Source: an uncultured Prevotellaceae bacterium
GTDB taxonomy: Bacteria; Bacteroidota; Bacteroidia; Bacteroidales; Bacteroidaceae
DNA: 64,000 bases
NCBI GenBank assembly: GCA_902799765.1
Contig: CADCBZ010000002.1
Location: forward strand, 39,967-103,966
Direction: 5' to 3'
Each line of letters opens with the position of its first letter. Within the stretch, counting starts at the first letter, position 1. A program made the translations under genes and the position numbers. Shown here in pieces: positions 7,710-36,085 of the stretch. The notes below the pieces were generated by a model that saw only the letters and a program-made list of their open reading frames with translations, had not been told where the DNA came from and searched no databases.

Positions 7710-9041
7710 ATGTCAACATTAACAGTTCTGATTGTCTTTGTTTTCTGTGCTGGCTACCTGTGTATAGCCTTGGAGAGCCTGACAAGAGTCAACAAGGCAG
7801 CTGTTGCCCTGCTGATGTGTGTGTGCTGTTGGACCCTGCTCATGATGGGGCCGGCAGCTTATTACCCCGCAGTTCCTGGCGAGGAGGTGGTTCACCACAT
7901 TGCTGAGGTCATTGAGCATCACTTAGGTGATGCCGCCGGTACCTTGTTCTTTCTGATGGGTGCCATGACCATCGTGGAGATTGTTGACTCCAACGGTGGC
8001 TTCAACTTCGTGCGCGACACGATGAAGACGCGCTCCAAACGGAAACTGATGTGGCGTATGGTCTTTATGACCTTCTTCCTCTCAGCCATCCTCGACAACC
8101 TCACCACTTCGATTGTGATGATCATGGTGCTCCGCAAACTTGTGCAGAGTCGTGGCGACCGTCTGATCTATGCGGCGCTGGTGGTGATTGCTGCCAACTC
8201 AGGTGGTGCTTTCTCGCCCATTGGTGATGTCACCACTATCATGCTATGGATCAAGGGTGTCATTACGACGCAGGGTGTGATTACCGAAATCTTCATCCCT
8301 TCACTGGTGTCGATGCTCGTTCCAGCCTTCATCCTGCAGTATCAGCTCAAGGGGAAGTTTGATAAGGAGAACAACTTGCCGAAGGCGGATGTCACCCAGT
8401 TTACGAAGGCGCAGCGCGACATCATCTTCTGGTTGGGTGTCGGTGGTCTCTGTTTCGTGCCGATCTTTAAAACACTCACCCATCTCCCGCCGTTCATGGG
8501 CATCCTCCTTGTCTTAGGCGTGCTCTGGACTGTGACGGAGATCTTCCATTATAACACCGCTGAAGACGATACGATGGCAAAGCGTGTGTCAGACCTCCTC
8601 TCGAAGATCGACCTCTCTACCATCATGTTCTTCTTAGGTATTCTGATGGCGGTAGCTGTGCTGCAGGAAGTCGGTGTGTTGACCATGATGGGCGGTGTGC
8701 TTGATTCAACCTTCGAGGGTAACCATTATCTGGTGACAGGTATCATCGGCGTTTTGTCTTCCATTGTGGACAATGTGCCCTTGGTGGCTGGTTGCATGGG
8801 TATGTATCCTGTCGCTGCAGCCGGTGACATGGCGGTGGATGGCATCTTCTGGCAGCTGTTGGCCTATTGTGCTGGTGTCGGTGGTTCGATGCTGATTATC
8901 GGCTCTGCTGCCGGTGTCGTGGTCATGGGTCTGGAGAAGATCACCTTCGGCTGGTATATGAAGAAGATCACGTGGGTGGCCTTTGCAGGCTACCTCGCGG
9001 GTATCTTCTGCTACTGGGCTGAGAAGACCTTCCTTTTCTAA
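7710..9041 (+). CDS. nhaD: Na+/H+ antiporter, NhaD/ArsB-type permease
   Basis: 443 aa and polytopic. The overall sequence resembles NhaD-family antiporters. Confidence 0.75.
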   Translation: MSTLTVLIVFVFCAGYLCIALESLTRVNKAAVALLMCVCCWTLLMMGPAAYYPAVPGEEVVHHIAEVIEHHLGDAAGTLFFLMGAMTIVEIVDSNGGFNFVRDTMKTRSKRKLMWRMVFMTFFLSAILDNLTTSIVMIMVLRKLVQSRGDRLIYAALVVIAANSGGAFSPIGDVTTIMLWIKGVITTQGVITEIFIPSLVSMLVPAFILQYQLKGKFDKENNLPKADVTQFTKAQRDIIFWLGVGGLCFVPIFKTLTHLPPFMGILLVLGVLWTVTEIFHYNTAEDDTMAKRVSDLLSKIDLSTIMFFLGILMAVAVLQEVGVLTMMGGVLDSTFEGNHYLVTGIIGVLSSIVDNVPLVAGCMGMYPVAAAGDMAVDGIFWQLLAYCAGVGGSMLIIGSAAGVVVMGLEKITFGWYMKKITWVAFAGYLAGIFCYWAEKTFLF

Positions 9042-9087
9042 GGAAGGCTTCTTTCATCATTGAAGGAAATAAAGCGCAGCCAACATC

Positions 9088-9498
9088 AAAAACGTCCTGA
9101 GCTCAGAGGCCGAAACCCTATTTTTTCAAATCACTCAATGAACTCGCTTTGCTCAGACAGCATTTCGTATTTCGTTGCTCAGATTGCTCATCGCAATCAG
9201 AGACTCAATATCGATTCAAAAAAATAGAATTTCTCTGAAGACCTCTTCGTGCGGAATGTTTTTGATATTGGCTACGCTTTGTCGATTACCGTACGATGTT
9301 GCCTGTTTCTTCGAATGAATTCTCAAAAACATTCCGCACGAAGAGGCATTTATAGGATGTACTATTATCGGAATCTTCTTCGATTCTTGTGTCGCGTAGC
9401 GAAACAAGCAAATCAACATGAGAAGCTGTTTGAGCGTAGCGAGTTCTTCGAATGATTACGATAATCGGACAACCGGCCTCCGAGCTCAGGACGTTTTT
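9088..9498. repeat. 411-bp nested inverted-repeat (foldback, MITE-like) element between convergent genes
   Basis: The outer 25-nt arms are 9088-9112 (aaaaacgtcctgagctcagaggccg) and 9474-9498 (cggcctccgagctcaggacgttttt), with 1 mismatch. The inner arms are a perfect 22-nt pair at 9242-9263 and 9325-9346, with a 61-nt loop. There is further imperfect arm-to-arm similarity (gaactcgctttgctcagacagc against gctgtttgagcgtagcgagttc). Confidence 0.6.
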
Positions 9499-9534
9499 GA
9501 GAATTTATTCGAAGAAAAATGCTTAGTCGAGATA

Positions 9535-12303
9535 TCAGCGCTTCTCACAGGGAATCCACATCCAGAAAGTGGAGCCATGGCCTTCACCTTCTGAGGTGAC
9601 GCCGATATGACCGTTACAGCGATCTGTGATGGCCTGACAGATGCTGAGGCCCAATCCTGTACCCTGTACGAAGTCATTCAACTTCACGAAACGCTCAAAT
9701 ACACTGGCCTGCTTCTCCTTGGGGATACCGGCGCCGGTGTCTTCACAATAGAACAACAGACCGTCAGCTTCTCCCTGTTCATCGAGGGTCAGTCTGCGCT
9801 CATAGCGATAGCCTACCTTGATATGCCCCTCGTGGGTATATTTCACAGCATTGGTCGTAAAGTTCGTGAGGATCTGTTGCACACGTCCTTTGTCGAGTGT
9901 TGTAACATAGTGCTCATAGGGATTGTCCTTGATAAATTCTACCCCTGGCTCCTGCACACGTTGGGCGAGGGTCTGACAGATATCATCGAAGACAGTGGCA
10001 AAATCCACTTCCTCGGGTTTGATAGCCAAGGCCTGACCCATGTTCGAGGCTTCGAGGATATCGTTGATGAGGCGCATCAGCATGTCACAGTTGTTGCGGA
10101 TGATACGGATGAACTCCATACGCTCCTCGTGCGTATCCACCATCGGCAACAGGTCGCTGAAGCCCACAATGGCATTCAGTGGTGTGCGGATCTCATGGGT
10201 CATATTCGCCAGGAAGGCACTCTTCATCTTACCGGAGTCCTCGGCACGGGCCGTCTCTTTCAACAGTTTCTGTTGGGCTACGATGAGTTTGGTGATGTCA
10301 CGTGACACACCGAAGTAGCCGATCTGACGTCCCTCTTTGTCGTAGGTTGGGATACCACTGACTGCATGCCAGGCCGGTTTCTTACTGTACTGTGTGTATC
10401 GGAAATGATGGATGATATTAAACGATTTGCTCATCGTGTCCGGATCCTTAAAGGCTTTCAATATTTCCTCTTTTTCATCAGGGAAGATACGGTTGATGTA
10501 GTCGTCGAAGGTTTCCTCGTACTCCGATTGACGCAATGAACGGGAATAGGTCAGCTGACGTGTCTGGAGATTTGAACGCCAAACGAACATCTCACTGTTC
10601 TCCAAAAGATAGGTCAGCTGATGCTCATAGTCATTGATGGCATCATAAGTCTTACGGATCTCGATGTCATGGTGTATCTTCTCAAGATACATCGTACGCT
10701 CAGCAGAGACGTCACGCGAGGTGACTACATAGGAGTGCAGCTCTCCCTCGTCATCTAAGATGGGGCGGATCCTGATTTCGATATATTTGTCGAGACCGAC
10801 TTCGGGGTAGTACATGTGACTGCAGATATGCAGGGGTTCACGGGATCCATGCTCATAGGCACCATGAAGCATGGGGAAATCAAACATATCGGTCTGTCGG
10901 AAGAACGCTTCACTCTTCTCTTCAAACTCACAGAGCTGGCGCATCTTCTCATTCGCATCAATCAGGAAACCGTCCTTATCGTAGAACGACATGGCAATAA
11001 GGTTGGTCTCGAACATCCGGGCGTATTTGTTACTCATCTCCAGGTTAATACGCTCTGACTCCACATCAAGGGTGATGTCTTTCACGGCATAGACGATATA
11101 ACGGGGCTTCCGGTCTTCCTGTTCCACGATGGCAGTACCTTCTAGATGTCGCCAGTCAGGTGCTTCCTCACTACCGATATTAAAGCGGCGGTTGAAATAT
11201 CTATTCTGCTCCTTACCCGCCATCAGCGAATGGGTATGATGTTCGAAATCTTTCTGGATGGCAGGGTCTAACCGTTTGATGAAGTCTTCCAGCGACAGCC
11301 CTTCGTCAGGAATCAACATCCCATAGGTGTTACGCATGTGGTTGGTCTTGATGTCGTATTCAAACACATAGAAATTACCCATCTGCAGAGCCTGTTTCAT
11401 CATACTGTTGATATCCTCGGAACGGTCGGCAGTGGACTTGATTTTGGAATGGATCAACCGACTTAGCAGGAAGGCTATGATGATGGCGATCACAGAACCG
11501 ATCAAGGCAAAGAGGGCGACGGGCGACGAGTCGTTATGAATACGCTCCGGGTTGAACCATTTGTCGTGGATGTGTTGCAACTCTCCCGCCTGTTCGAGTC
11601 GGGCAAAGGTGTCGTCGATCGCTTCGATGAGTTCTTTGTCATAGCCGATGATACGCAACTCACCTGCCGGAATGTCGATGTCATCGAGCAACAGACTGTC
11701 GAGACCATACTCCTTAATCTTCATTCTCAACGGCATCTCACCCCATACATAATAGGTGTTTTGCCCGTGACGGATGGCAGCCAAGGCTTCTCTGGGGGAA
11801 CGATATTCTGTATGGTAGGGTTTGTCGTGGATGGCCTGTACGCGTAGCGCCACATAGTCGTTATTCTTCACCATCAGGGTATCTTGGGGCGTGAGCTCAC
11901 TGAGCCGTTGGATGGCCTTCTGACTTTTCCTTCTGACCAACTTCACGGGATAGTAGGTGATCAGATTCTGTGTCATCACATACGGATGCTTTTTGTAGTT
12001 CATGGTCAGGGCGTGGATAAGGTCAGCCTCATGGTTCTCAAAAGTCTTGGTACAGAGATACCACTCCTGCATTACATACTTATGAGGCACCTTCAGGGTG
12101 TTTAGGATGAGGTCGAGCACTTCCACGTTATAGCCGTCAGCCTCACCGTGGTCATTGCGGAACTCATATGGCGGGAACTCCCAGTCGCTCACAATGACAA
12201 GAGGCTGTTCTTCGGTATATTCACGTGCCCATTGTGCCTCTGCAGGCAAAAGACTGCAGAACACTGTCAGACAGGTGAGGATTATGATTTTTTTTGTCAT
12301 CAT
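9535..12303 (-). CDS. Sensor histidine kinase A: periplasmic solute-binding (SBP_bac_3-like) domain, TM, PAS-like region, HisKA, HATPase; no receiver domain
   Basis: 922 aa with a signal peptide and an N-terminal amino-acid-binding-protein-like domain. The TM segment is VALFALIGSVIAIIIAFLL. The H-box is canonical (MTHEIRTPLNAIVGFSD). N/G1/G2 boxes are TNAVKYT, EDTGAGIP and GTGLGLSI. Confidence 0.9.
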   Translation of the reverse strand: MMTKKIIILTCLTVFCSLLPAEAQWAREYTEEQPLVIVSDWEFPPYEFRNDHGEADGYNVEVLDLILNTLKVPHKYVMQEWYLCTKTFENHEADLIHALTMNYKKHPYVMTQNLITYYPVKLVRRKSQKAIQRLSELTPQDTLMVKNNDYVALRVQAIHDKPYHTEYRSPREALAAIRHGQNTYYVWGEMPLRMKIKEYGLDSLLLDDIDIPAGELRIIGYDKELIEAIDDTFARLEQAGELQHIHDKWFNPERIHNDSSPVALFALIGSVIAIIIAFLLSRLIHSKIKSTADRSEDINSMMKQALQMGNFYVFEYDIKTNHMRNTYGMLIPDEGLSLEDFIKRLDPAIQKDFEHHTHSLMAGKEQNRYFNRRFNIGSEEAPDWRHLEGTAIVEQEDRKPRYIVYAVKDITLDVESERINLEMSNKYARMFETNLIAMSFYDKDGFLIDANEKMRQLCEFEEKSEAFFRQTDMFDFPMLHGAYEHGSREPLHICSHMYYPEVGLDKYIEIRIRPILDDEGELHSYVVTSRDVSAERTMYLEKIHHDIEIRKTYDAINDYEHQLTYLLENSEMFVWRSNLQTRQLTYSRSLRQSEYEETFDDYINRIFPDEKEEILKAFKDPDTMSKSFNIIHHFRYTQYSKKPAWHAVSGIPTYDKEGRQIGYFGVSRDITKLIVAQQKLLKETARAEDSGKMKSAFLANMTHEIRTPLNAIVGFSDLLPMVDTHEERMEFIRIIRNNCDMLMRLINDILEASNMGQALAIKPEEVDFATVFDDICQTLAQRVQEPGVEFIKDNPYEHYVTTLDKGRVQQILTNFTTNAVKYTHEGHIKVGYRYERRLTLDEQGEADGLLFYCEDTGAGIPKEKQASVFERFVKLNDFVQGTGLGLSICQAITDRCNGHIGVTSEGEGHGSTFWMWIPCEKR

Positions 12304-12321
12304 TCGAATCTCTTTTGCCGG

Positions 12322-15111
12322 TTAGTTTCGTTCCATTTCAATCAACTTGCAGGGGATGGTGAACCATACATTGGTGCCTTTGCCTACAGTTGAGGTCAGA
12401 TTGATCTTTCCCCCCATATGCTGGATCAGATCCTGACAGATACTCAGTCCCAGACCTGCACCACTGGTAGTGGAGTCGGTGACGAAACGGTCGAAGATGT
12501 GCGTGATCTGCTCCTCCGGGATACCATGTCCCGTGTCTTCCACTGACACGGCGAGCTGGTCGCCTAAGTAGTCGTAATGCACCAGCACTGTCCCCTCATT
12601 GGTATGTTGCACGGCATTGGTCAGGATCTTCTCCATCACCATACTGATATGATTCATGTCGATATCGACTACCAGTTTTTTGAAAGGTGCCTTCACAATA
12701 TAGGAGACGCCAGGTTTCCGCTGATTCGTCCATATATGCTCACAACGTGCGGTGATACTGGTGGCGAAGTCGGTAGGCTGCGGGTTGATGGTGATCATCT
12801 CAGCATCCAGTCGTGAAAGGAAGAGGATGTCGTTGATGAGTTTCAGCAACTGTGCCGAACTTGATTTAATCTCATCGATGAACACAGCCTCGTCTTCTGC
12901 GCTGTGATCCATCTGGAAGAGCTCTGCGAATCCCACGACGGTCGTCAGAGGGGTACGGATCTCAAAGCTCATGTTGTGAAGGAACGCATTCTTCACCACC
13001 TCCACCTCTTGGGCACGTAAGGTCTCTTGTGCCAGCTTTTCTTCAATGGTCTTCAGTTCACTGATGTCACGACACATACCGAAGTATTCTTTCAGGTCTC
13101 CCTTCTCATCGTGGAAGGGGATGAAGTGGAACTGCAGATGCAGGGGATGGCCTTTTCGTCTGATGGTGGTCCTCACGTCAGCTTGTACGCGAGTGGCGGT
13201 CTTGTTGTCCATGTTGTTCAAGATACGCTCCGTAGCCTTCTTCCACGCCGGGTCGATCAGGTTCAGCATTCTGGTCTGTGTCAGTGAGAGCAAAGCTCTG
13301 TTAGCCTCATTGAAGAGGGTGAGCGTGTGGGTGGTCAGGTCGTATTTCACCAACTTGATACCACCGACTTTCAACACGTAGTCGATATTCTGGATATATT
13401 CCGACACCTCGGCGTTGGCTTTTTGTAGTTCCTGGATATCCTGCAACACATGCTGATAGGACTCTGCCATCTCCGTCACGTTACGGCCTGTACCGAAGAT
13501 GGCGAGTAACTTCCCTTCCGCATCGCGTACTGAGGTCAACTGCAACTCATAGTAGAGCTTGTCGCGCTTCAGCATCCTGTGCAACGGACGGCTATCTTCC
13601 CCTTTGTAAATCTGGGTAAGGTACATATGTTCGAAGTGTTCTATATCAAGGTCGGGATCACCCACCACGTCTTTGATGGAGATCTTCATATTTCTGATTA
13701 CCTGGATGTCAGCCCCTAAGGCCGAGAGGGCCTTCTGGTTGATATCCACAATATAGCCCTGGGCATCATAAGCCACCATATCCACCATGACAGTGTTGAA
13801 GATCGCCTGATAGCGCAACAGCATGTTCTTCGCTTCTATCTGGCGTAGCAGTTCCTTCGTCACGTCACTGCGGGTACAGAGGATGGTCGTGGGATGTCCG
13901 CCCTTGTCGCGGCGCAGGACACTCAGTGCCACGGTATAGTTGTGGGCTTGGGTCTCGTCATTGTTCTCAAACACCTGGATGTCGAGGTTCACATGTTCCT
14001 CCTTCTCACTGCTGATATCGTCGATGGCACGCTGCAGGCGTTGTACGTCCTTGGCTCTGTAGCGATACACAAAGGCATCGAGGGGCATACTCTGCTGACC
14101 TTTGCCTTGTTCGTCCATCCAGGTAAACTGCTTCGTCAGGATGTTATAGGTCCACAGACTTACATGACTCGTCTTCAGGATGAGCGACAAACGGTTATTA
14201 CTCTTACGTACAGCCAAGGTCAGACGTCTCTCTCTGGCGCGGTACACAATGTAATAAAGCAACAGGATGACGGCAATGACAGCGAGGGTGGCAGCCAGAT
14301 ACCATACCCATGCCGGGATACCCGTATCGCGACGGTCAGGGTAGAACCATTTATTCTGAATGGGTTGCAGCTTGTCGGCAGCTCTCAGCACCACATAGGC
14401 GCTATCGATACGTTCCAGCAGATGACGGTCACGCGACATGAACTTATACTCGCCATAGGGCATGTCGATCGGCATCAGTGTCAGTTTGTCAGTCCGGTAT
14501 TTCCGCATGAGCCATTTCAGCGACATCGTGTTCCAAAGGATGATGCCGTTATTCTTGTCTATGACATCCTGAATAGCGCTCTTCATGTCGTCATAGGGCA
14601 CAATCTCCTTGGCCCAACCCTGTTTCTTGAGGTAGTGATGACTGAAGCTGCCGCCATGTACGATGACACGGTAGTTCTTGAGGTCTTTCTCCTGACGGAT
14701 ATGGACAGGCAGGCTCTTAGGTACTAAGATGCTATGTGTAAACAGCTGGACGATGTTCTTGCTGTAGAGACTGTTCTCACGGGAGTACTCTGCATCCATA
14801 CGCAGCATCAGGTCACTCTTCCCGTTCTTTAAGTCTGCCTGAGCCTCCAAAGTGGGCTTCAGTTTGATGACATAGGGGATGTCGAGCTCCTTGAAGATCA
14901 GTTTCAGGAGATCGATGTTATAACCGTCGGGCTCTCCATTCTCATTCAGGAACACGTAAGGCCAGAGATCCCAGGCGTCCTCATAGATCAGGGGACGTTC
15001 CGTGGTGTAGATTCTCGTCGTGTCTGACTGTCCTGTCTGGGCTATCACTGTCTGCCAAGACCACAGACAGGCAAACGCCATGACTATATACCTTATATTA
15101 TATATATTCAT
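12322..15111 (-). CDS. Histidine-kinase-like protein B: SBP_bac_3-like domain, TM, PAS-like region, HisKA-like with Phe in place of the phospho-acceptor His, intact HATPase
   Basis: 929 aa. The H-box reads MSFEIRTPLTTVVGFAE, with the Phe codon at 12964-12966. N/G1/G2 boxes are present: LTNAVQHT, EDTGHGIP and GAGLGLSI. Confidence 0.85.
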   Translation of the reverse strand: MNIYNIRYIVMAFACLWSWQTVIAQTGQSDTTRIYTTERPLIYEDAWDLWPYVFLNENGEPDGYNIDLLKLIFKELDIPYVIKLKPTLEAQADLKNGKSDLMLRMDAEYSRENSLYSKNIVQLFTHSILVPKSLPVHIRQEKDLKNYRVIVHGGSFSHHYLKKQGWAKEIVPYDDMKSAIQDVIDKNNGIILWNTMSLKWLMRKYRTDKLTLMPIDMPYGEYKFMSRDRHLLERIDSAYVVLRAADKLQPIQNKWFYPDRRDTGIPAWVWYLAATLAVIAVILLLYYIVYRARERRLTLAVRKSNNRLSLILKTSHVSLWTYNILTKQFTWMDEQGKGQQSMPLDAFVYRYRAKDVQRLQRAIDDISSEKEEHVNLDIQVFENNDETQAHNYTVALSVLRRDKGGHPTTILCTRSDVTKELLRQIEAKNMLLRYQAIFNTVMVDMVAYDAQGYIVDINQKALSALGADIQVIRNMKISIKDVVGDPDLDIEHFEHMYLTQIYKGEDSRPLHRMLKRDKLYYELQLTSVRDAEGKLLAIFGTGRNVTEMAESYQHVLQDIQELQKANAEVSEYIQNIDYVLKVGGIKLVKYDLTTHTLTLFNEANRALLSLTQTRMLNLIDPAWKKATERILNNMDNKTATRVQADVRTTIRRKGHPLHLQFHFIPFHDEKGDLKEYFGMCRDISELKTIEEKLAQETLRAQEVEVVKNAFLHNMSFEIRTPLTTVVGFAELFQMDHSAEDEAVFIDEIKSSSAQLLKLINDILFLSRLDAEMITINPQPTDFATSITARCEHIWTNQRKPGVSYIVKAPFKKLVVDIDMNHISMVMEKILTNAVQHTNEGTVLVHYDYLGDQLAVSVEDTGHGIPEEQITHIFDRFVTDSTTSGAGLGLSICQDLIQHMGGKINLTSTVGKGTNVWFTIPCKLIEMERN

Positions 15112-17138
15112 ATGTTAGTCTTTATGTCACAAGGGATCCAGAACCAGAAGGTGGAACCATGACCCTGGCCCTCTGAGTTCACACCGATCTTTCCGTGGAA
15201 GCTCTCTACGATGGCTTTCGAGATGTTCAGGCCCAGACCTGTACCCTGTACGTAGTCGTTCAGTTTCACGAATCGCTCAAAGATCTTGTTCTGGTCTTCC
15301 TTCGGGATACCGGCACCCGTATCTTCACAATAGAAGTACAAACCACCATCCTTCTGTTCATAGCCTACCTTGATATGGCCTTCGTTTGTATATTTCACGG
15401 CGTTGGTCACGAAGTTCGTAATCACCTGTTGGATACGCTCTTTGTCAAGTACAGCCATCAGGGTGGTGTAGGGGTTCTCCTTGATAAAGGTGACGTTGGG
15501 ATTATCGATGCGCTGGGCCAGTGACTTACAGATCGCCTCAAAGTCATCTGCGAAGTTCGTCTCCACGGCATGTACATAAATACTGCTACCACCGTCGATG
15601 GCCGATAAGGCTAAGATATCGTTGATCAGTCTGAGCAGCATGTCACAATTGTTCATGATCACCCTCACAATCTCCTTTTTCTCCTCAGGTGTCTCCAACA
15701 TCGACAGCACATCACTGAAACCGACGATGGCATTCAGCGGGGTACGGATCTCATGGGTCATGTTCGCCATGAACACACTCTTCATCCGTCCTGAGTTCTG
15801 GGCACGCTCCGTCTCCTGCTTCAACTGCTCCTGTTTCTGGATAAGCGGTGTCACATTACGGATGATACCATAGGTACCCAACTGTTTACCGTTCATATCG
15901 TGATAAGGCACACCGTCGATGATGTTCCACTGCAGATCCTCGCCTTCATGGAAGAAGGGATGACAGAGTGTCAGCTCGGCTTTAGGCTTTTGCAACTTGT
16001 TCTCCGGGTCGAGCAGGTCGTCCTTGAAGGTACTCTGCACAAAGTGCGCCCGCAGTTCATCGAAGTCCATCGGTGGCATGGCCGTCTTCAGACCTTTATA
16101 GAAAATTACGGTCTTGTCGGCGAAGTTAGTACGCCAGAAACGCATGTCACAGCTGTCCATCAGATACTGGATCTCGTTCTCCAGGTTCTGGATCTCCTCA
16201 TTGGCCTTTCGTATCTCCAGACCGTTCTGTTTGCTCTGAAGATAGAGTTCTCGCTCCTGGGTGACATCACGGATGGAGAAGGTGATATACACCAGTTCGT
16301 CCTGTTCGTCGTGGATGGGGTGTACACGTATCTCCGTATAGCAGTTCACATCCCGGTCTATGATAATCGTCTTCGAACAGAAATAGAGTTCCTCTATATG
16401 TCTGTTTGCCAGCACTTCCCTGAAGGTCGGCATGTCATAGAGTGTCTTCTCAAAGTAATAGGGATCATTCTCCGACTGGAACTTCAAGATTTCTCGCATC
16501 TTCTGGTTGACCGTGAGCAGGTGTCCTTCCTGGTCATAGAAGGCCAGACCCACCAATGACTGCTCAAAGGTCTTGCGATATTTGTCGGTCAGCTCCTGTT
16601 CTTCACGCTCCTGGAGGATCCGTTCGGTCTGGTCTGACAGTGTACAGAAAATATTGATGGGTGTCTTGAGACCTTCTACATATTCTGCCACGCCCTGGTC
16701 GTGCATATAACGCCACTCTCCGGCATGCCGGTCCCCACTGATATCCCAGCGGAAGATGCACTCGGCAGTCTTAGCGCCTTCATTGTAGAGATTGGCGATA
16801 AAGCGGCGATAGTGTTGATGATCCTCCGGATGCATATACTTGTAACTCTCCTCATACCCCATACCTGCCTCAGGCAAGAAATCTCCATGTAAGTTATAAC
16901 CCCAGCGCTGGCGCAGGTCGAGCCTCACCACGTAGTTGGCGTTCACGTCGAGGGTATGTTGCATGATGTCATTGATTTCCTTACTATCCTTCACACGTCT
17001 GCGGATTCGCCGGATACTGAAGTGATTGATACCCCATGTGATGATGAAAGCCATGGTTGTCAGCGTGATCATCAATACCGATGGGGTATCGAGGAATCCT
17101 ATCTGTAGGAGGGTGTTATGTAGGATCATACTGTTCAT
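15108..17138 (-). CDS. Sensor histidine kinase C: N-terminal TM, PAS-like region, HisKA, HATPase; no receiver domain
   Basis: 676 aa. The H-box is canonical (MTHEIRTPLNAIVGFSD; His codon 15753-15755). It has TNAVKYT, EDTGAGIP and GTGLGLNI. ATGA overlaps join it to both neighbours. Confidence 0.9.
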   Translation of the reverse strand: MNSMILHNTLLQIGFLDTPSVLMITLTTMAFIITWGINHFSIRRIRRRVKDSKEINDIMQHTLDVNANYVVRLDLRQRWGYNLHGDFLPEAGMGYEESYKYMHPEDHQHYRRFIANLYNEGAKTAECIFRWDISGDRHAGEWRYMHDQGVAEYVEGLKTPINIFCTLSDQTERILQEREEQELTDKYRKTFEQSLVGLAFYDQEGHLLTVNQKMREILKFQSENDPYYFEKTLYDMPTFREVLANRHIEELYFCSKTIIIDRDVNCYTEIRVHPIHDEQDELVYITFSIRDVTQERELYLQSKQNGLEIRKANEEIQNLENEIQYLMDSCDMRFWRTNFADKTVIFYKGLKTAMPPMDFDELRAHFVQSTFKDDLLDPENKLQKPKAELTLCHPFFHEGEDLQWNIIDGVPYHDMNGKQLGTYGIIRNVTPLIQKQEQLKQETERAQNSGRMKSVFMANMTHEIRTPLNAIVGFSDVLSMLETPEEKKEIVRVIMNNCDMLLRLINDILALSAIDGGSSIYVHAVETNFADDFEAICKSLAQRIDNPNVTFIKENPYTTLMAVLDKERIQQVITNFVTNAVKYTNEGHIKVGYEQKDGGLYFYCEDTGAGIPKEDQNKIFERFVKLNDYVQGTGLGLNISKAIVESFHGKIGVNSEGQGHGSTFWFWIPCDIKTNI

Positions 17139-19252
17139 GTGGCGCTTTCGTTGATGATTTCTGTTTTCTTCTCTCTGCTGATCATCTCACAGGGGATCAT
17201 CAGATAACACGTGGTGCCCTTGCCCTGCTCCGACTGGATCTCAATCTGTCCACCCATCTGCTCCACCAGTTCCTTCACGATGGGCATGTCGAGACCCGTA
17301 CCACTGATTTTGTTCTGGTCATCTTTGACGAAGCGGTCGAAGACATGGGGCAGGACCTCTTTTCTCAGACCTTTACCGGTATCTTCGATGACGATGCTCA
17401 GTTCCCCATGGTGGTATTCGTACTTCGCACGTACCATTCCTTCGCTGGTGTAGCAGGCCGAACAGGTACAGATCTTCTGGATGGCCTGTCCGAGGTGCTG
17501 CTCGTCGATATTCAATACCAGATGGTTATAGGGGTTGTCGATGACGGCTTTCACGTTGGGGCCCAATGCACCCCATCCGAGATAGCACCAGCCGTCGAAG
17601 AGAGACGCGAAGTCACTCGCTTCCTTGGGGAACTCCACCATCTTGGCATCGAGTCGGGAGATGAAAAGAATATCGTTCACGAGGTTCAACAGCTCGTCGG
17701 TATTACGCTTGATCTCTTCTGCGAACACGGGTTCGTCCTCCACGTCGTGGGGACTGTTGAAGAGTTCTGCAAATCCTAAAACGGCATTGAGTGGCGTTCT
17801 GATCTCGTAGCTCATGTTCAGCAGGAAGGTGTTCTTCAACTCCTCAGTCTCCTGTGCTTTCTTACTCTCTTCCATCAGACGCATCTCGGTATAGGTCATT
17901 TCGGTCTCATCGCGACACAGACCGAAATACTGGGTCACATGTCCCTCTTTGTCTGTCATGGGAATAAGACTGAAGCTCATATAGACATCCCGCCTCTGTT
18001 GATCATGGAAGATGGTATGCAGCACCTCCGAGATATTACCTGTTTTGCCCTGATCCATTCTCATGAACAACCCTCTGAGCTTCCTACGATCTGACTCATG
18101 GATGAGTGAAGCACAACGAATCTGCGAGAGACGGTATTGTACCTTGTTCAGGTCACTGAAGATCTGTAGCTCATGGCGTCTTGGGTGATAGGTGATCAGC
18201 CTGACACCACTGGCCCTGAGGGTGTAGTTGATATTCTGGATGTAAGACTGGATCTGTTTGGTGGTATTCTGCAGCAACTGTACCTCTTCCTCCTGTTTAT
18301 GATGCGACTCCACCATCTCTGTGATGTTACGTCCGGCTGCCATTACGCCATGGAGCTGCCCCTTCTCATCGCGGATCGGACTGAGGATGGCTTCGTAGTA
18401 ACAGGTGCCTTTCAGATTCAAGTCAGGGATACGCTCGTCTTCTCTCTTCACCTGGTCGATGTCGGTGATGGATGACAACCGGATGCTGTCATACAACTCA
18501 TTGATGTTGATATGGCGATAAGACGGGATATCGTTGATATGCACGTTCTTCTTCAAGAAACTGTTGCGGTCGGCAATCATAAAGGTTTCACAGGCCTTCT
18601 CGTTCAGATCCATCAGACGGCCGTCAGGACCATAAAAGATCATGTCCACCAACGAGGAGTTGAACACCGTCTGATACTGCAACGACAAGTCATGGGTCTT
18701 CTCCCCTCTACGCTTGCTCTCTGTGATGTCACGCTGAACGCCTAACAGCATCATGGGATGATGCTTCTGGTCCCGTTTTAGTACAGAGACGTTGATTTCA
18801 TATGTTTTCTGCCCATTGTGACTCCTGACGAGCAGCGTCTCAGAGAGACTGTTTTCGATGAGAACGTTCGTGATCTTCGCACGAAGTTGCTCGAAGTCAT
18901 CATGGTTAAAGAATTGTGCAAAGTCGATGGGCGCATAGACGGTCCTTGTGACGGTCTCACTGGAGATTAGGGTGAAGATCTTCGTGACATCATAGGTCCA
19001 CACCTCGGTCTTGTTAGAATTCAGCACGAGTGCCAGTTGGGTGTTCAATTGTTTGGCACGGTTGCTCACTTCCTGTTCACGATAATAATACAGGCGATTC
19101 GAGAAAATCAAGACGAACACACCAATCAACAAGACCGCTACCAGATAGGCAGAGAGGTGATACGGGTCTGCAATCGTGTTCCAGTTCTCAGCTTGGGCAT
19201 AAGCCGTTGCAGAGAAGAGTAGCATCAGCAGGGTCGTTGATATTTTCGTCAT
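17135..19252 (-). CDS. Histidine-kinase-like protein D: signal/TM, PAS-like region, HisKA-like with Tyr in place of His, degenerate N-box
   Basis: 705 aa. The H-box reads MSYEIRTPLNAVLGFAE, with the Tyr codon at 17807-17809. The N-box position reads ICTCSACYT, so the Asn is missing. G1 (EDTGKGL) is present and G2 (GTGLDMPI) is partly degenerate. Confidence 0.85.
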   Translation of the reverse strand: MTKISTTLLMLLFSATAYAQAENWNTIADPYHLSAYLVAVLLIGVFVLIFSNRLYYYREQEVSNRAKQLNTQLALVLNSNKTEVWTYDVTKIFTLISSETVTRTVYAPIDFAQFFNHDDFEQLRAKITNVLIENSLSETLLVRSHNGQKTYEINVSVLKRDQKHHPMMLLGVQRDITESKRRGEKTHDLSLQYQTVFNSSLVDMIFYGPDGRLMDLNEKACETFMIADRNSFLKKNVHINDIPSYRHININELYDSIRLSSITDIDQVKREDERIPDLNLKGTCYYEAILSPIRDEKGQLHGVMAAGRNITEMVESHHKQEEEVQLLQNTTKQIQSYIQNINYTLRASGVRLITYHPRRHELQIFSDLNKVQYRLSQIRCASLIHESDRRKLRGLFMRMDQGKTGNISEVLHTIFHDQQRRDVYMSFSLIPMTDKEGHVTQYFGLCRDETEMTYTEMRLMEESKKAQETEELKNTFLLNMSYEIRTPLNAVLGFAELFNSPHDVEDEPVFAEEIKRNTDELLNLVNDILFISRLDAKMVEFPKEASDFASLFDGWCYLGWGALGPNVKAVIDNPYNHLVLNIDEQHLGQAIQKICTCSACYTSEGMVRAKYEYHHGELSIVIEDTGKGLRKEVLPHVFDRFVKDDQNKISGTGLDMPIVKELVEQMGGQIEIQSEQGKGTTCYLMIPCEMISREKKTEIINESAT

Positions 19253-19344
19253 GTCAGTAATAACCTTATATTGATATTATTGGTAGGTTTTTGGTGGCGA
19301 AATTAATCATTTTTTGCGAAACAACAAAGAAAAATTGCAAAATA

Positions 19345-19376
19345 TTTGGCGGATTGACAGAAAAACGCTACTTTTG
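19345..19376 (+). promoter_or_regulatory. Promoter module (TTTG -33-like element plus TACTTTTG -7 box) for frr
   Basis: tttggcggattgacagaaaaacgctacttttg ends 32 nt before the frr ATG. A copy matching at 25 of 32 positions sits upstream of fabG at 63325-63356. Confidence 0.5.
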
Positions 19377-19407
19377 TCATCAGAAAACGCTAAAACTTAG
19401 TAAGATT

Positions 19408-19968
19408 ATGATAGATGTAAAAGAAACTTTGAAGAAAAGCGAAGAGCGCATGGAGATGGCTGCGATGTTCCTCGAGGAGGAGTTGAATCGTGTTCGAGCT
19501 GGTCGCGCCAATGTCGCCATCCTCGATGGTGTCCGTGTAGAACTCTACGGCAGTAAAGTGCCATTGAACCAGGTGGCAAACGTCAGTGTGCCTGATCCTC
19601 GTACTATCGCCATCAAGCCGTGGGATCGTAAGGAGATCCGTAACATCGAGAAGGCCATCATGGATTCTGATGTAGGCATCACCCCGGAGAATAACGGTGA
19701 GATCATCCGTCTAAACATTCCAGTGCCTACAGAGGAGCGTCGTAAGGATCTTGTAAAACAGTGTAACAAGATCTGTGAGAAGGCCAAGGTTGAGGTGCGT
19801 AATGTGCGTGCCGACATCAAGGACAAGCTGAAGAAAGCCATTAAGGACGGTCTCTCAGAGGATAATGAGAAGGATGCTGAGCTGGAGTTGCAGAAACTCC
19901 ATGATAAGTTCATCAAGAAACTCGACGACTTGATGGCAGCCAAGCATAAGGAAATCATGACTGTATAA
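19408..19968 (+). CDS. frr: Ribosome recycling factor
   Basis: 186 aa from the internal Met ([18 protein letters not shown]...). This is the typical Frr length and sequence. The upstream extension in the ORF track begins at TTG and runs through the promoter. Confidence 0.95.
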
Positions 19969-23142: not shown

Positions 23143-23198
23143 CAACCATCTTTGTGCACTAAGATAATCAAGGTATATAGAAAAATAGCTATTTGATA

Positions 23199-25640
23199 AT
23201 GAAAAAATATCTTTTTACGATGTTTTTGTCGTGCTTAACCCTCATGGTTCAAGCACAAATGAGCGATACGCAGGTAATGCAGCAGATCCAGCGTGAGATG
23301 AAGTCGGGTGCGTCTCAGTCTCAGATTGCGACACGTCTGATGCAGAAAGGTGTCACGATGCAGCAACTCCAGCGCGTGCGTTCACAGTATGAAGCTCTGT
23401 ATGGTGGCAGGTCTTCCCGCTCCTCAGGAAATATTTCCGATGTGCTGGTAGAGGATAGCCGCCTTCGTGATAACAATGGTGCAGTCTTGGTGGACTCGGT
23501 TGGTAATGCCCTTCATACCCAGCAAGTAAGAGCTACTTCTGCAGCAGATTTAGATCGCGAAATGGTGATGAGAACAGGATCGAATGGATATTTGTATAAT
23601 GGTAAAGTCGTTTTTGGTCGAGATATTTTCAATAAAAATGCCCTTTCTTTCGAGCCGAACATGAATATCGCCACCCCGACGAATTATGTCGTAGGCCCTG
23701 GTGATAAGGTGTTTATTGATGTTTATGGTGCTTCTCAGAAGTCGGAACAGTTGCAGGTCTCTCCTGACGGCACGATTCAGGTTACAGGTTATGGTCCCAT
23801 CCATATTGGTGGCTTGTCAGTGGCTCAGGCCAATGCCCGCATCAAGGAGACGCTTGGTACCCGTTATAAGAGTTCCGAGGTTCGTCTGACGGTTGGTCAG
23901 ACCCGCACGATCAGCGTCAATATCATGGGTGAGGTCGTTGCTCCTGGTACCTATACTCTCTCTGCTTTTGCCACGGTATTTCATGCCCTCTATATGGCAG
24001 GTGGTGTCAATGGCATCGGTACACTCCGTAACATCAAGGTCTTCCGTGGTGGTCGCCAGGTCACTTCGGTCGATTTATATGATTATATCCTCAATGGCAA
24101 GCTCACGGGCAATGTCCGTTTGGCTGATAATGATGTGATCATGGTCGGTCCCTTCGACTGCATTGTCGATATCTCAGGTTTTGTGAAACGCCCGATGGCC
24201 TACGAGATGAAGAAGAACGAAAGTGTCGCCACCCTGCTCAAATACGCAGGCGGTTTTGCTTCTGGTGCCTATCGTAAGGCGGTTCGTCTGAATCGTGTGG
24301 CAGGCGACCATTATTCTGCCTATAATGTCCCCGAGTTTGAGATGGCAGGCTTCAAAGTTGCTGATGGTGACTCTGTGACGGTTGATTCCATCTTGGCTCG
24401 TTATGAGAATACGGTAACTGTCGAAGGTGCTGTCTTCCATCCTGGACATTACGACTTAGGTAGTAATCCTACCGTCCGTGCGTTGGTGGAGAGTGCGGGT
24501 GGCGTCACGGAGATTGCCTTCCAAGGTCGTGCCGTGTTACATCGCATGAAACCCGACCGTACTTGGCGTGTTGTCTCTGTGGATCTCGAAGGTATTCTCA
24601 ATGGCACCGTGGCCGATATTCCTCTGGAGAATGAGGATGTCCTCACGATTGCTGTCCGTCAGGATAAGACGAATGAACGCATCGTGACGATCATGGGCGA
24701 GGTGAAAGTGCCTGGCACCTATGAATATGCCGAGAACGAGACCGTCGAGGACTTGATTGTTCAGGCTGGTGGTCTGACAGATGCAGCATCGACTGCTCGT
24801 GTCGATGTCTCTCGTCGTATCATCGATCCGAAGGCGACGACCTTTAGAAAGGATATTGCCCAGAACTTCTCCTTCACCTTGAAGGATGGTCTCTTGATCG
24901 ATGGTGATCGCAGCTTTACGCTCATGCCTTATGATGAAGTGATCGTGCGCAGCAGCCCTGGATATATGCCCCAGCGTAACATCATGGTGACAGGTGAAGT
25001 GCTCTATCAAGGTGCTTATACACTTAATAAGAAAAACCTGCGTCTTTCGGACGTGATTGCGATGGCAGGTGGTGTCACAGACGAAGCCTATGTCCGTGGT
25101 GCTCGTATTGAGCGCCCGCTCAATGAGGATGAGAAGTTCCGATTGAAACATCTGCTGAAGATGGCACAAGTACAGGGCGGTTCAGGCTTAGACGCCAGCA
25201 AGATGGGGCAAGACACCGTTTATTATGTGGGTATCGAACTCGACAAAGCTTTGGCGAACCCAGGCAGTGATTATGATGTCGTCCTCCGAGAAGGTGACCG
25301 TCTCGTCGTGCCGGAATATTCTGGAACTGTCAAGATCAATGGCAATGTGATGCATCCGAATACCGTGGCCTATATGGAGGGTAAGCCCTATAAATGGTAT
25401 ATCAACAAGGCTGGTGGCTATGGCAATGGTGCGAAGAAGTCTAAGGCCTATATCCTTTACCAGAATGGGCTCGTATCTCAGGCAAAAAATGGAAAAATCG
25501 AACCTGGCTGCGAAATCATAGTGCCAAACAAGACGCGTTCGGCTAATCAGAATATAGCGATGATTGCTTCCCTCGGTACTTCACTGGCAACGATGGTAAC
25601 CATGATTGCAACTGTGACGAATCTGATCAAGTCTTTCTAA
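23199..25640 (+). CDS. Polysaccharide export outer-membrane protein (Wza-like, multiple SLBB-type repeats)
   Basis: 813 aa from the first ATG, with a signal peptide. A repeated motif recurs: G.V..PG.Y......T..D.I..AGG. There is a C-terminal hydrophobic helix. This architecture is typical of Bacteroidales capsule export proteins. Confidence 0.85.
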   Translation: MKKYLFTMFLSCLTLMVQAQMSDTQVMQQIQREMKSGASQSQIATRLMQKGVTMQQLQRVRSQYEALYGGRSSRSSGNISDVLVEDSRLRDNNGAVLVDSVGNALHTQQVRATSAADLDREMVMRTGSNGYLYNGKVVFGRDIFNKNALSFEPNMNIATPTNYVVGPGDKVFIDVYGASQKSEQLQVSPDGTIQVTGYGPIHIGGLSVAQANARIKETLGTRYKSSEVRLTVGQTRTISVNIMGEVVAPGTYTLSAFATVFHALYMAGGVNGIGTLRNIKVFRGGRQVTSVDLYDYILNGKLTGNVRLADNDVIMVGPFDCIVDISGFVKRPMAYEMKKNESVATLLKYAGGFASGAYRKAVRLNRVAGDHYSAYNVPEFEMAGFKVADGDSVTVDSILARYENTVTVEGAVFHPGHYDLGSNPTVRALVESAGGVTEIAFQGRAVLHRMKPDRTWRVVSVDLEGILNGTVADIPLENEDVLTIAVRQDKTNERIVTIMGEVKVPGTYEYAENETVEDLIVQAGGLTDAASTARVDVSRRIIDPKATTFRKDIAQNFSFTLKDGLLIDGDRSFTLMPYDEVIVRSSPGYMPQRNIMVTGEVLYQGAYTLNKKNLRLSDVIAMAGGVTDEAYVRGARIERPLNEDEKFRLKHLLKMAQVQGGSGLDASKMGQDTVYYVGIELDKALANPGSDYDVVLREGDRLVVPEYSGTVKINGNVMHPNTVAYMEGKPYKWYINKAGGYGNGAKKSKAYILYQNGLVSQAKNGKIEPGCEIIVPNKTRSANQNIAMIASLGTSLATMVTMIATVTNLIKSF

Positions 25641-25654
25641 AAATTGATACTATC

Positions 25655-26719
25655 ATGGAAGAAAATAAAAAGGAAACTGTTCGTCGGACTGGTGCACCTA
25701 TTGACTTCGGTGCTACTTGGGCTGCCATCAAGAAATATAAAAAGCTCTATTACAAGACGCTGGGGTTTGCTTTCGTCATAGCGCTTATTATAGGCTTCTC
25801 TATACCAAAGACTTATAATTGTCAGATACTGCTAGCGCCTGAAACTGGTGGGGGAAGTAGTAGTTTAGGTACATTAGCTTCTCTTGCTTCGTCTTTTGGT
25901 GTTAGTCTTGGAAGTAGTTCGCAAGGAGGCGATGCCATCAAACCATCCATTTATCCCGATCTCATGAAAAGTGTGGATTTTAAGACCTCGCTCTTTCCGA
26001 TTAAAGTAAAAAAGAAGGGAGATGAGAAAGCTATCTCATATTATAATTATCTCAAATATGAGTGGCGTGAACCTTGGTGGAAGGATATGTTTGGATTGTT
26101 GTCGCCAGAATTGAAAGAAGATACGTTGGTTAATGCATTCGAATTGACTTCCGAACAATCTCGTATTGCAAGCTTAGCTATTAAAAATATCGAATGTACT
26201 ATTGATAAAAAAACAGGTTTAATAACGATTGATGTAACAGCTCAGGATCCCAATATTGCTGCCCTGTTAGCTGATTCTGTTAAGAACCGGTTACAGGATT
26301 TCTTGACTGCCTATCGTACTAAGAAAGCGCGTCATGACTTGGATTTCGCTTTAAAATTGAACAAACAGGCTAAGAAGGACTATGAGCGTATCCGACAAGT
26401 CTATTATGAATATATGGATGCCAATCAGGATGTCTCGCTATTATCGGCAACACAGAGACAAAACGATTTGGAAAACGAAATGCAGCTGCAGTATAATAAC
26501 TTTACAGCCACAAGCGCCCAAGTGTTGGCAGCCAAGGCTAAAGTTCAAGAAACAACCCCCTCATTTACAACTGTTCAGTCTGCCACAGTGCCCTTAAAAC
26601 CTTCTGGTCCTAGGAGACTGGTCATTTTGGCGGTTTGTCTTTTCTTGGCAGCATTAGGCACCACCATCTATGCTCTTGCTAAAGAGCATCAACTGAAGCC
26701 CCTTCTTGGTCTCTCTTGA
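25655..26719 (+). CDS. Chain-length determinant (Wzz-like) protein without a kinase domain
   Basis: 354 aa with N- and C-terminal TM helices flanking a coiled-coil-rich periplasmic region. It lies directly after the export gene. Confidence 0.78.
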   Translation: MEENKKETVRRTGAPIDFGATWAAIKKYKKLYYKTLGFAFVIALIIGFSIPKTYNCQILLAPETGGGSSSLGTLASLASSFGVSLGSSSQGGDAIKPSIYPDLMKSVDFKTSLFPIKVKKKGDEKAISYYNYLKYEWREPWWKDMFGLLSPELKEDTLVNAFELTSEQSRIASLAIKNIECTIDKKTGLITIDVTAQDPNIAALLADSVKNRLQDFLTAYRTKKARHDLDFALKLNKQAKKDYERIRQVYYEYMDANQDVSLLSATQRQNDLENEMQLQYNNFTATSAQVLAAKAKVQETTPSFTTVQSATVPLKPSGPRRLVILAVCLFLAALGTTIYALAKEHQLKPLLGLS

Positions 26720-26842
26720 TGATCACCGTTCCTTCACCCAATACATCAAAGAACCCATCTTCCACGGCTACGTAGAGGAATGTCTATGGTGATTGTGTAA
26801 AATTATTTAGCAACAGTTATTTGAATTGTAAAGACTTGCAAA

Positions 26843-27949: not shown

Positions 27950-27997
27950 AAAGTGAAAATACTTGCAGTTTTCTTTGGTAGATTCCCAAAATAGTCG

Positions 27998-28005
27998 TAC
28001 CTTTG
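27998..28005 (+). promoter_or_regulatory. Possible internal -7 promoter box TACCTTTG
   Basis: It lies in the 188-nt gap between the aminotransferase and the rfbC-like gene. Confidence 0.3.
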
Positions 28006-28137
28006 CGGCATTAAAAGGGAATCGATTCCAAAAGTAGTACCTTTTTGGAGAAATTTTTAAAATTGTAAGGTGCCTAACACTTTGGCTATGAGATTGTTAT
28101 GCCTATGTGTTAGGAAGGTTGTTGCTTGTCTATATTT

Positions 28138-28692: not shown

Positions 28693-28706
28693 TCCTATAC
28701 TAAAGA

Positions 28707-30050: not shown

Positions 30051-30093
30051 TAACGAGCATCTTTTGTGTTCGTCCTGAATGTGTTTCATAAAC

Positions 30094-31629: not shown

Positions 31630-31641
31630 TATGATAGGTTT

Positions 31642-32721: not shown

Positions 32722-32727
32722 TTATTT

Positions 32728-34163: not shown

Positions 34164-34169
34164 CATCTG

Positions 34170-34970: not shown

Positions 34971-34982
34971 TTTGTTTGAGTC

Positions 34983-36077: not shown

Positions 36078-36085
36078 CCTTAATT

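Follow-up and report, generated by a model that had tools for sequence, protein, structure and literature searches.

Histidine kinases are usually viewed as homodimers in which every subunit is a phosphodonor. An operon of four kinase-like genes in the genome of an uncultured Prevotellaceae bacterium (contig CADCBZ010000002.1, positions 39,967 to 103,966; this whole stretch of 64,000 nucleotides is referred to below as the window) raises the question of what two paralogs without the phospho-accepting histidine do beside two that have it. The comparisons described here indicate that the two His-less proteins are selected components of a large family, and suggest that they may act as partners of the canonical kinases encoded directly after them.

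Two canonical and two His-less kinase genes in one operon

The genes, named D, C, B and A in order of transcription, lie head-to-tail on the minus strand, to which all coordinates within the array refer, and form one operon of HisKA/HATPase_c genes according to the open reading frame (ORF) list and Pfam. The first gene, D (17135-19252, 705 amino acids), encodes a signal peptide or transmembrane (TM) anchor, PAS, a HisKA domain without the acceptor His and a degenerate HATPase_c domain. It is followed by C (15108-17138, 676 amino acids), with a TM anchor, PAS and a fully canonical HisKA/HATPase_c core, and by B (12322-15111, 929 amino acids), with a signal peptide, a periplasmic SBP_bac_3 domain, a TM helix, PAS, a HisKA domain without the acceptor His and a HATPase_c domain whose ATP-binding glycines are intact. 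The last gene of the operon, A (9535-12303, 922 amino acids), combines a signal peptide, SBP_bac_3, a TM helix and PAS with a fully canonical HisKA/HATPase_c core. The D/C and C/B junctions are ATGA overlaps of 4 nucleotides (nt), and B and A are separated by 18 nt.

Matches to HisKA (PF00512), HATPase_c (PF02518) and PAS exceeded the Pfam gathering scores in all four proteins, with multiple PAS domains located between the membrane and the dimerization and histidine phosphotransfer (DHp) domain. All four proteins end with HATPase_c, and no receiver or Hpt domain was found by Pfam at their C-termini. A hydropathy scan predicted one TM helix per protein; in A and B it comes with a signal peptide and some 230 periplasmic amino acids, whereas C and D have simple membrane anchors, and SBP_bac_3 was detected by Pfam in A and B only. 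Over the C-terminal 260 amino acids A and C are 61% identical and B and D 44%, compared to 36-38% for the cross pairs, so that B/D and A/C appear as two sister classes, an arrangement that fits a duplicated pseudokinase-kinase pair.

The acceptor column was set by aligning all four proteins with EnvZ and HK853. This position is occupied by His462 in C (codon CAT, 15753-15755) and His703 in A (CAT, 10195-10197), and by Tyr482 in D (TAC, 17807-17809) and Phe716 in B (TTT, 12964-12966). The H-box of D, NMSYEIRTPL, has kept everything else around its Tyr. The N, G1, F and G2 boxes of the ATP-binding domain are fully intact in A and C. In D, the N-box remnant TCSACYT (17447-17467) has Cys in place of the Mg-ATP-coordinating Asn, and the third Gly of the G2 box is replaced by Asp (GTGLDMP, 17282-17302). 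B has retained the N-box Asn, G1 and G2, and its N-box (TNAVQHT, 12601-12621) has Gln instead of the usual Lys. An AlphaFold2 (AF2) model of the D core, with a predicted local distance difference test (pLDDT) value of 84, matched WalK and HK853 with template modeling scores of 0.78-0.84, which corresponds to a class I kinase fold. Judged by these residues, B and D are homologs of the HisKA kinases but are not members of the family in the catalytic sense, the acceptor His being absent; C and A are predicted to be the only proteins able to carry a phosphoryl group on the canonical His, and D would lack normal Mg-ATP binding.

Most of this architecture had been proposed in an earlier reading of the letters alone (the original prediction). 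Its four ORF positions, overlaps and 18-nt gap match the ORF list exactly, as do the acceptor residues and their codons in all four genes, and the EnvZ/HK853 alignment indeed puts a non-His residue in the column of B and D. The loss of the N-box Asn in D, the presence of SBP_bac_3 in B and A and its absence from D and C, and the mutual resemblance of B to D and of A to C were borne out as well. The claim that the ATP-binding boxes of B are intact stands for the N-box Asn, G1 and G2, but not for the N-box Lys.

Conservation of the His-less state and of a hairpin-tip motif

Homolog searches yielded 120 D-type and 120 B-type proteins with identities of 57-100%, which are named only as "PAS domain S-box protein [Prevotella sp.]" or "signal transduction histidine kinase". 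The acceptor position is Tyr in 114 of the D-type orthologs and His in three. Among the B-type orthologs it is Phe in 72, always with His at position -4, Tyr in 46, always with Arg at -4, and His in two. Contig look-ups and a metagenome scan with an alignment of the D N-terminus provided more than 80 loci, across which the D-C-B-A order is kept, with frr/rsgA divergent upstream and a CitMHS transporter gene convergent downstream. In this metagenome survey the B acceptor was Phe in 24 cases, Tyr in six, His in six and Ser in one locus (L002), with Asn, G1 and G2 kept, and the 67 D sequences had Tyr (60) or His (7). The N-box Asn was retained in only 21 of these 67 D-type sequences and was absent from six of the seven with an acceptor His; the third G2 Gly was Asp in 60 of the 67.

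Thirty-eight distinct complete arrays of the Prevotella type were recovered. Written in the order D, C, B, A, their acceptor states are Y-H-F-H, as in the window, in 20 of the 38, Y-H-H-H in nine, and H-H-Y-H, Y-H-Y-H and H-H-F-H in three each. Parsimony on a tree of the concatenated arrays placed Tyr at the root of D, with two independent Tyr-to-His switches that are single TAY-to-CAY transitions, and required at least four changes at the B acceptor. In C (57/57) and A (38/38), the acceptor His, E+1, R+3, T+4, P+5, the N-box Asn and Lys, and the G1, F and G2 boxes are all 100% invariant. With the C and A columns invariant and the B and D acceptors switching, the position is therefore free among planar residues in B/D and frozen in A/C. 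The gene order and the F/Y substitutions, which the original prediction had seen in one genome, are thus found in 38 arrays and hundreds of orthologs, ruling out a strain-specific mutation or a sequencing error. What did not survive is any idea of a fixed residue: the substitutions are conserved as a non-His state in most orthologs, but D alternates between Tyr and His, and B among Phe, Tyr, His and Ser, through several independent switches.

The ratio of nonsynonymous to synonymous substitution rates (dN/dS) was 0.06-0.16 across all four genes, with values of 0.07-0.13 for D and 0.07-0.16 for B. The DHp domain is the most conserved segment of B and D (0.83-0.92), and conservation of the catalytic and ATP-binding (CA) domain is 0.56-0.79 in B/D versus 0.78-0.93 in A/C. 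The periplasmic SBP_bac_3 domain of B (14344-14964), a Venus-flytrap domain, shows the highest conservation of all sensor segments in the four proteins, with 0.94, 0.87 and 0.80 over amino acids 41-100; its AF2 model (pLDDT 82) had as best fold match 3h7m, a periplasmic binding protein-like histidine kinase sensor, followed by Gln-, Arg-, His- and Glu-binding proteins. The corresponding domain of A lies at 11551-12201. On these substitution and conservation patterns, B and D are selected paralogs and are not decaying, with selection acting chiefly on the DHp domain and, in B, on the ligand-binding domain. The single TM helix of D (amino acids 33-51, 19100-19156), preceded by a signal-peptide-like N-terminus and not accompanied by any periplasmic sensor domain in the hydropathy scan, was considered as an intramembrane contact and rejected, its conservation being only average (0.55-0.67). 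One operon (L171:5154-14885) is a mosaic in which A is 92% identical to the A of the window and D, C and B only 54-62%, which suggests recombination within the array between lineages.

The family extends well beyond the four-gene arrays. Two-gene loci were found with only a Tyr-type D and its canonical C (L146, L149, L154 and L162) or with only a B-like Phe-type gene and an A-like canonical one (L167 and L169); together with the two sister classes, these stand-alone versions agree with the predicted duplication of a pseudokinase-kinase pair. The Phe-type loci are remote (L167/L168, 30% identity; L169, 27%) and consist of a His-less SBP protein gene and then a canonical SBP kinase gene, with an overlap of 4 nt or 1 nt; the neighbourhoods of L167 and L169 are unrelated. 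An exhaustive profile search was made of 1.84 billion cluster representatives, and among the best 150, which were examined, a non-His acceptor was present in 60 or more distinct clusters (built at 50% identity), the most remote of which are only 25-30% identical to B or D. Their H-boxes mostly read NMSYEIRTPL, with Phe, Ile, Arg, Gln and Ala also present. In deeper relatives of the B class (proteins P0368-P0402, for example P0383, P0390 and P0369) H-boxes such as NMSYSIRQPL and NMVQEIRTPM were observed, where even the +1 Glu and the +4 Thr are replaced; part of the family is therefore without the HisKA catalytic and phosphatase motifs. A B-like protein of another remote locus (L003:9185-12160) has kept the acceptor His, but its N-box is without the Asn (MCRLASQFT) and neither G1 nor G2 can be recognised, which is the opposite, FasC-like disablement at the same position of the pair.

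In every readable context, a canonical kinase gene of the sister class comes directly after the His-less gene. Median gaps in distinct arrays were 11 nt from D to C (n=63), 6 nt from C to B (n=42) and 12 nt from B to A (n=42), with frequent 4-nt overlaps, and distances at the junction lay between -4 and about 20 nt for both D to C (63 distinct arrays) and B to A (42). Moreover, natural fusions of C to B were present in six sequences from different samples (L141:4840-9594, L142:12061-16824, and proteins P0122, P0203, P0216 and P0231), giving proteins of about 1585-1600 amino acids with one live and one dead kinase core. At the junction (...FWMWIPT-MVKILVL...) the stop codon and the last eight or so residues of C are gone and the signal anchor of B is read in frame, so that the B signal peptide becomes an internal hydrophobic segment. 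As an internal Met stays at the junction, B might also be made separately from it.

The two classes also differ at the tip of the DHp hairpin. B and D share the signature H(+20)-x-x-x-D(+24)-E(+25)...F(+28)...E(+31)-I-K(+33), numbered from the acceptor, with the His in 103/103 and the D-E in 104/104 sequences. In D it reads H502-D-V-E-D-E-P-V-F-A-E-E-I-K515 (17708-17749), where H, D-E, F and I-K are each conserved in 67/67 sequences, and in B H736-S-A-E-D-E-A-V-F-I-D-E-I-K749 (12865-12906), with H in 36/36, D-E in 37/37 and F in 37/37; the B motif is kept in the deep 50%-cluster representatives. A and C have instead D, E, S or T at +20, E at +24, K or R at +25, E at +27 and I or V at +31, a contrast that is also present in the deep representatives. 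In the AF2 model of the D core, the loop between alpha1 and alpha2 contains His502, and alpha2 opens with E505-D506-E507 in its first turn, which puts these residues at the membrane-distal tip of the bundle. The alpha1-alpha2 loop of EnvZ tolerates most substitutions (PMC10160972), and an invariant, class-specific loop in B/D is therefore unusual and suggests a dedicated contact.

Candidate roles of the His-less proteins

The reading that we favour, to which we give a little less than an even chance, is that B and D would be selected pseudo-histidine kinases that act through their DHp domains as non-phosphorylatable partners of C and A. The operon would then comprise two tandem pseudokinase-kinase receptor pairs, D with C and B with A, in which D and B would join their neighbouring kinases through DHp as heterodimers, which the original prediction had proposed as obligate, or as a higher hetero-oligomer. 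Signals would be sensed in the periplasm by the amino-acid-type Venus-flytrap domain of B, and in both B and D by PAS domains; these inputs would determine the balance of kinase and phosphatase activity that C and A direct at a response regulator whose gene lies elsewhere in the genome. Physical contact between the partners, the way regulation runs between them and which regulator they serve are what we infer here. A role as partner subunit is favoured because of the strict adjacency and coupling of the genes, the fusions, the tip signature and the fact that characterised pseudo-histidine kinases contact a real kinase. The nucleotide-binding residues that B has kept without an acceptor would fit either trans-phosphorylation of the partner, a possibility raised in the original prediction, or a nucleotide-dependent control of conformation.

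Several observations weigh against this partner reading. A and C hold everything needed for ordinary homodimeric kinases. In nine of the 38 arrays B has an acceptor His and a complete-looking CA domain and may, by its sequence, be an active kinase, so that the role of B-type proteins cannot strictly depend on the absence of the His. The fusions join C to B and not the presumed partners D and C or B and A, and this direction means that all four proteins may form one complex, or that the assembly may be of another kind. At the tip, the differences in charge would favour heterodimers only under a particular bundle geometry. Finally, a rule that each array needs at least one His-less member was considered and discarded, as independent D and B states would predict about 1.4 all-His arrays among the 38, which is not significantly different from the zero observed.

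A bolder form of the partner reading, which we regard as tentative and rather doubtful, would make B and D a large, hitherto unrecognised family of bacterial receptor kinases that are obligately heteromeric. Its unit would be an asymmetric DHp bundle of one acceptor-less and one catalytic subunit recognised through the tip, and two such units, possibly linked by contacts of C with B into a single complex of four proteins, would merge two periplasmic ligands and several cytoplasmic PAS signals into one phosphorylation output. If true, bacteria would have their own equivalent of the receptor pairs of pseudokinase and kinase exemplified by HER3/HER2 and by the two subfamilies of ethylene receptors.

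The strongest competitor, although we consider it unlikely, supposes that B and D form homodimers that are never phosphorylated, make no contact with A or C, and dock the regulator of A and C, from which they would remove the phosphate or which they would sequester, as directed by their own sensors. The HisKA E-x-x-T-P motif is indeed kept, with the +4 Thr present in 36/36 B and 62/67 D sequences. A Thr or Asn at +4 is required exclusively for the phosphatase activity of HisKA proteins, and the His of EnvZ is "not required but enhances" (PMC3510030). High conservation of DHp, an acceptor varying among His, Tyr and Phe, and a relaxed CA domain form the pattern of a kinase-off, phosphatase-on paralog, and phosphatase activity could be shared by B orthologs with His and those with Phe or Tyr. 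Docking of a common regulator would also agree with the specificity residues. By homology with the set defined in EnvZ (T250, R251, L254, A255, E257 and M258, followed by S269, K272 and D273; PMC2991266), the regulator-contact positions of alpha1 are nearly identical in all four proteins (N-A-G-F-D/E-L/V), those of B and D matching A and C, a likeness that we also count in favour of the partner reading; however, the alpha2 position +31 differs between the classes, being E/Q in B/D and I/V in A/C. Moreover, DivL, with the same Y-E-L-R-T-P-L H-box and the other boxes, has neither kinase nor phosphatase activity (PMC4211667), and PleC H610A loses its phosphatase activity; the E-x-x-T-P motif is therefore no proof of such activity. 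Phosphatase activity can do without the +1 Glu, which B and D have nevertheless kept without exception, and the deeper family members with NMSYSIRQPL change both +1 and +4. Nor does this explanation account for the C-B fusions, for the invariant tip motif, or for the fact that a canonical kinase gene is strictly adjacent and translationally coupled.

Clearly less probable is a reversed flow of information as in DivL, whereby the dead cores of B and D would sense the phosphorylated regulator and relay its state through PAS domains to control C and A. The acceptor Tyr, the retention of all the other boxes in B and the multiple PAS domains between membrane and DHp resemble DivL, to which similarity in sequence and fold exists at the ordinary family level. 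Nevertheless B and D are not DivL orthologs, as WalK and HK853 rank above it in both sequence and fold searches; the Phe, Ser and Gln variants indicate that the Tyr itself is not required, and the strongly conserved periplasmic ligand-binding domain of B points to forward signalling and not only to the sensing of a phosphorylated regulator.

Phosphorylation of B and D on a non-canonical residue (the Tyr, the loop His at +20 or the His at -4 of B), by their own or by the partner's CA domain, appears very unlikely. The invariance of the loop His, which is also present in 48/60 deep non-His representatives, would be in its favour, as would the association of a His at -4 with Phe in 72/72 B orthologs and the retention of the N-box Asn, G1 and G2 in B, which implies that some use of nucleotide is still selected. 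However, Phe and Tyr interchange among orthologs and Phe is not phosphorylatable. The -4 His is ancestral, since it is also found in the B orthologs with an acceptor His, and it is Arg in all 46 Tyr-type B orthologs, so it was rejected as a relocated acceptor. The +20 His is modelled at the far end of the bundle, within the loop of the hairpin, and the tip of a HisKA bundle is distant from the site where the CA domain presents ATP; in the B-like protein of the remote locus L167 the residue at +20 is Lys, and the Mg-coordinating Asn is missing from 46/67 D sequences. As for B and D being functionless, slowly decaying duplicates carried along in the operon, the losses of the acceptor and of ATP-binding residues in D do resemble early decay, but the selection and conservation data effectively refute it, with full-length ORFs kept in orthologs down to about 27% identity, dN/dS values (0.07-0.16) equal to those of A and C, DHp and the B ligand-binding domain as the most conserved segments, and an invariant class-specific motif.

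Output regulator, neighbouring genes and relation to known systems

The original prediction had seen no response regulator or Hpt gene in the 64 kb. A small receiver hidden Markov model (HMM), run on six-frame segments of the window, had no match at E<=1, and Pfam detected no receiver or Hpt domain in 30 of its larger ORFs, Hpt being covered by these Pfam scans only; the statement is thus upheld for receivers by both approaches and for Hpt within the scope of the ORF scans. Those 30 ORFs include dnaK, recA, frr, rsgA, a polysaccharide locus, clpB and a GH94 gene. Most related loci likewise have no receiver domain within 10 kb on either side. The HisKA cores score best against the hybrid kinases TorS, LuxQ, ArcB, BarA and EvgS; from this, and with no linked regulator, we infer that the array may signal to a receiver protein that stands alone or to one of the Rec-Hpt type, with its gene at another site in the genome.

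Two candidates found in related loci were rejected. In two remote lineages (L003:6990-9115 and L167:7257-9368) an OmpR-type regulator and a short kinase (465-469 amino acids) are encoded just upstream of the pseudokinase-kinase pair, and the two regulators are 76% identical. The short kinase has the specificity residues S/A-S-G-Y-E-T versus N-A-G-F-D/E-L in the array, and the regulator therefore probably belongs to a separate system. The second candidate, a gene with AraC_binding and HTH_AraC domains, lies directly after A in 9/46 related loci (among them L083:19789-20658, L128:19765-20634, L141:12418-13290, L167:15509-16378 and L170:15586-16455) and is absent from the window. Its adjacency to A recurs at identity levels of 30% and 60%, and genes for rhamnose utilisation (an FGGY kinase, RhaA and RhaT) come next in L167 and L170, so it is probably a RhaR-like rhamnose regulator.

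Upstream of the operon, the intergenic region between D and the divergent frr (19253-19420) is the presumed promoter region, with conserved frr/rsgA synteny. Scans for sigma-70 promoters and terminators gave no more matches than in shuffled sequence, the sigma-70 model not applying to Bacteroidota, and no Rfam match was found in 8900-19600. At the other end, nested inverted repeats were observed in the convergent spacer of 490 bp between the stop codons of A and the CitMHS gene (9071-9522), with arms of 27 nt (9086-9112 and 9474-9500, 96% complementary) and 33 nt (9233-9265 and 9323-9355, 88%). Their core, TCAAAAAC.., occurs four times in alternating orientation and nowhere else in the window, and has no match to an Rfam family; it may be an element resembling repetitive extragenic palindromes and bacterial interspersed mosaic elements (REP/BIME) or miniature inverted-repeat transposable elements (MITE). 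Further away, a block of low GC content (26000-38000; 0.36-0.39 versus about 0.49 elsewhere) contains co-directional polysaccharide-biosynthesis genes, encoding a DegT aminotransferase, a cytidylyltransferase/oxidoreductase and an EpsG polymerase, downstream of a Wza-like Poly_export gene (23193-25640). It is probably a horizontally exchanged capsule or O-antigen locus, and at its edge lies an ORF with an IS200-like Y1 transposase domain (39490-40341, minus strand).

To our knowledge, only a handful of pseudo-histidine kinases have been studied individually (DivL, RetS, FasC and PsmA). Here, a whole family from Prevotella-type Bacteroidales, dominant bacteria of gut and rumen, is apparently built on a fixed gene pair of a dead sensor followed by a live kinase, and hundreds of proteins annotated as "sensor histidine kinase" or "PAS domain S-box protein" are flagged by their predicted residues as unable to be kinases. 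Such a family provides a handle on two questions, why non-catalytic kinase paralogs are retained and how several signals are merged upstream of one regulator. Although pseudo-histidine kinase partners as a concept have been described before, the size of the family, the sharpness of the evolutionary contrasts and a tip motif specific to one class make it possible to test directly how dead kinase paralogs work.

In their domain order, A and B recall BvgS and EvgS: a periplasmic SBP_bac_3 domain is followed by a TM helix, by PAS and by a HisKA core with its best scores against hybrid kinases. They differ from them in having no receiver or Hpt domain and one flytrap domain instead of two, and in that one of the two flytrap proteins is His-less. 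A more distant analogy is offered by the plant ethylene receptors of subfamily 2 (ETR2, ERS2 and EIN4), which have a degenerate, His-less kinase domain and form heteromers with the subfamily-1 receptors that have the kinase motifs. These are eukaryotic proteins with another ligand-binding domain, an output through CTR1 and no operon, and the likeness goes no further than analogy.

Among bacterial proteins, RetS of Pseudomonas aeruginosa is a kinase-like sensor that modulates a genuine kinase, GacS, through a DHp heteromer, as cited in work on the Fas system (PMC12675982). RetS is a detectable structural relative. Unlike the array proteins, RetS and GacS have receiver domains, as kinases of the hybrid or unorthodox kind, and their genes are not neighbours; each of the two also forms homodimers, and RetS is an inhibitor.

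DivL of Caulobacter and other alphaproteobacteria acts without phosphorylation, binds a regulator and controls a real kinase, CckA (PMC4211667). It shares with D the HisKA/HATPase_c core, a Tyr at the acceptor position of an otherwise intact H-box and multiple PAS domains. Nevertheless, the closest solved relatives of the D core are WalK/YycG and HK853, and DivL (4q20) ranks 12th by sequence (E 3e-20, versus 1e-24 for WalK) and 21st by fold; D is therefore not a DivL ortholog and its Tyr is convergent. The lineages differ as well, alphaproteobacterial in one case and Prevotella (Bacteroidota) in the other. DivL is not encoded beside its kinase and has no periplasmic ligand-binding domain, its acceptor Tyr hardly varies, in contrast to the exchange of Tyr, Phe, His, Ser and Gln seen here, and it keeps the N-box and G2, both of which D has lost.

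A literature search found no description of this Prevotella family or of the alternating four-gene array. The original claim that the arrangement is undescribed goes too far, however, since a heteromeric tandem with a proposed pseudokinase is known in FasB and FasC (PMC12675982), and DivL and RetS/GacS are further precedents. By analogy, FasBC is the closest functional precedent. In the FasBCAX system of group A Streptococcus, tandem genes encode kinase-like proteins that interacted in two-hybrid assays with each other but not with themselves; one was proposed to be a pseudokinase, so that both are needed for a full signalling unit (PMC12675982). As in the D-to-C and B-to-A pairs, kinase-like genes are adjacent in one operon and one of them is catalytically incomplete. 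The defect is different, however: FasC keeps its acceptor His and its CA domain is dispensable, whereas B and D have no acceptor and A and C are complete. Furthermore, the Fas operon contains its regulator, FasA, and the D-C-B-A locus contains none; the two systems have unrelated sensor domains and no particular kinship in sequence; and Fas consists of one pair, where the array reported here has two alternating pairs.

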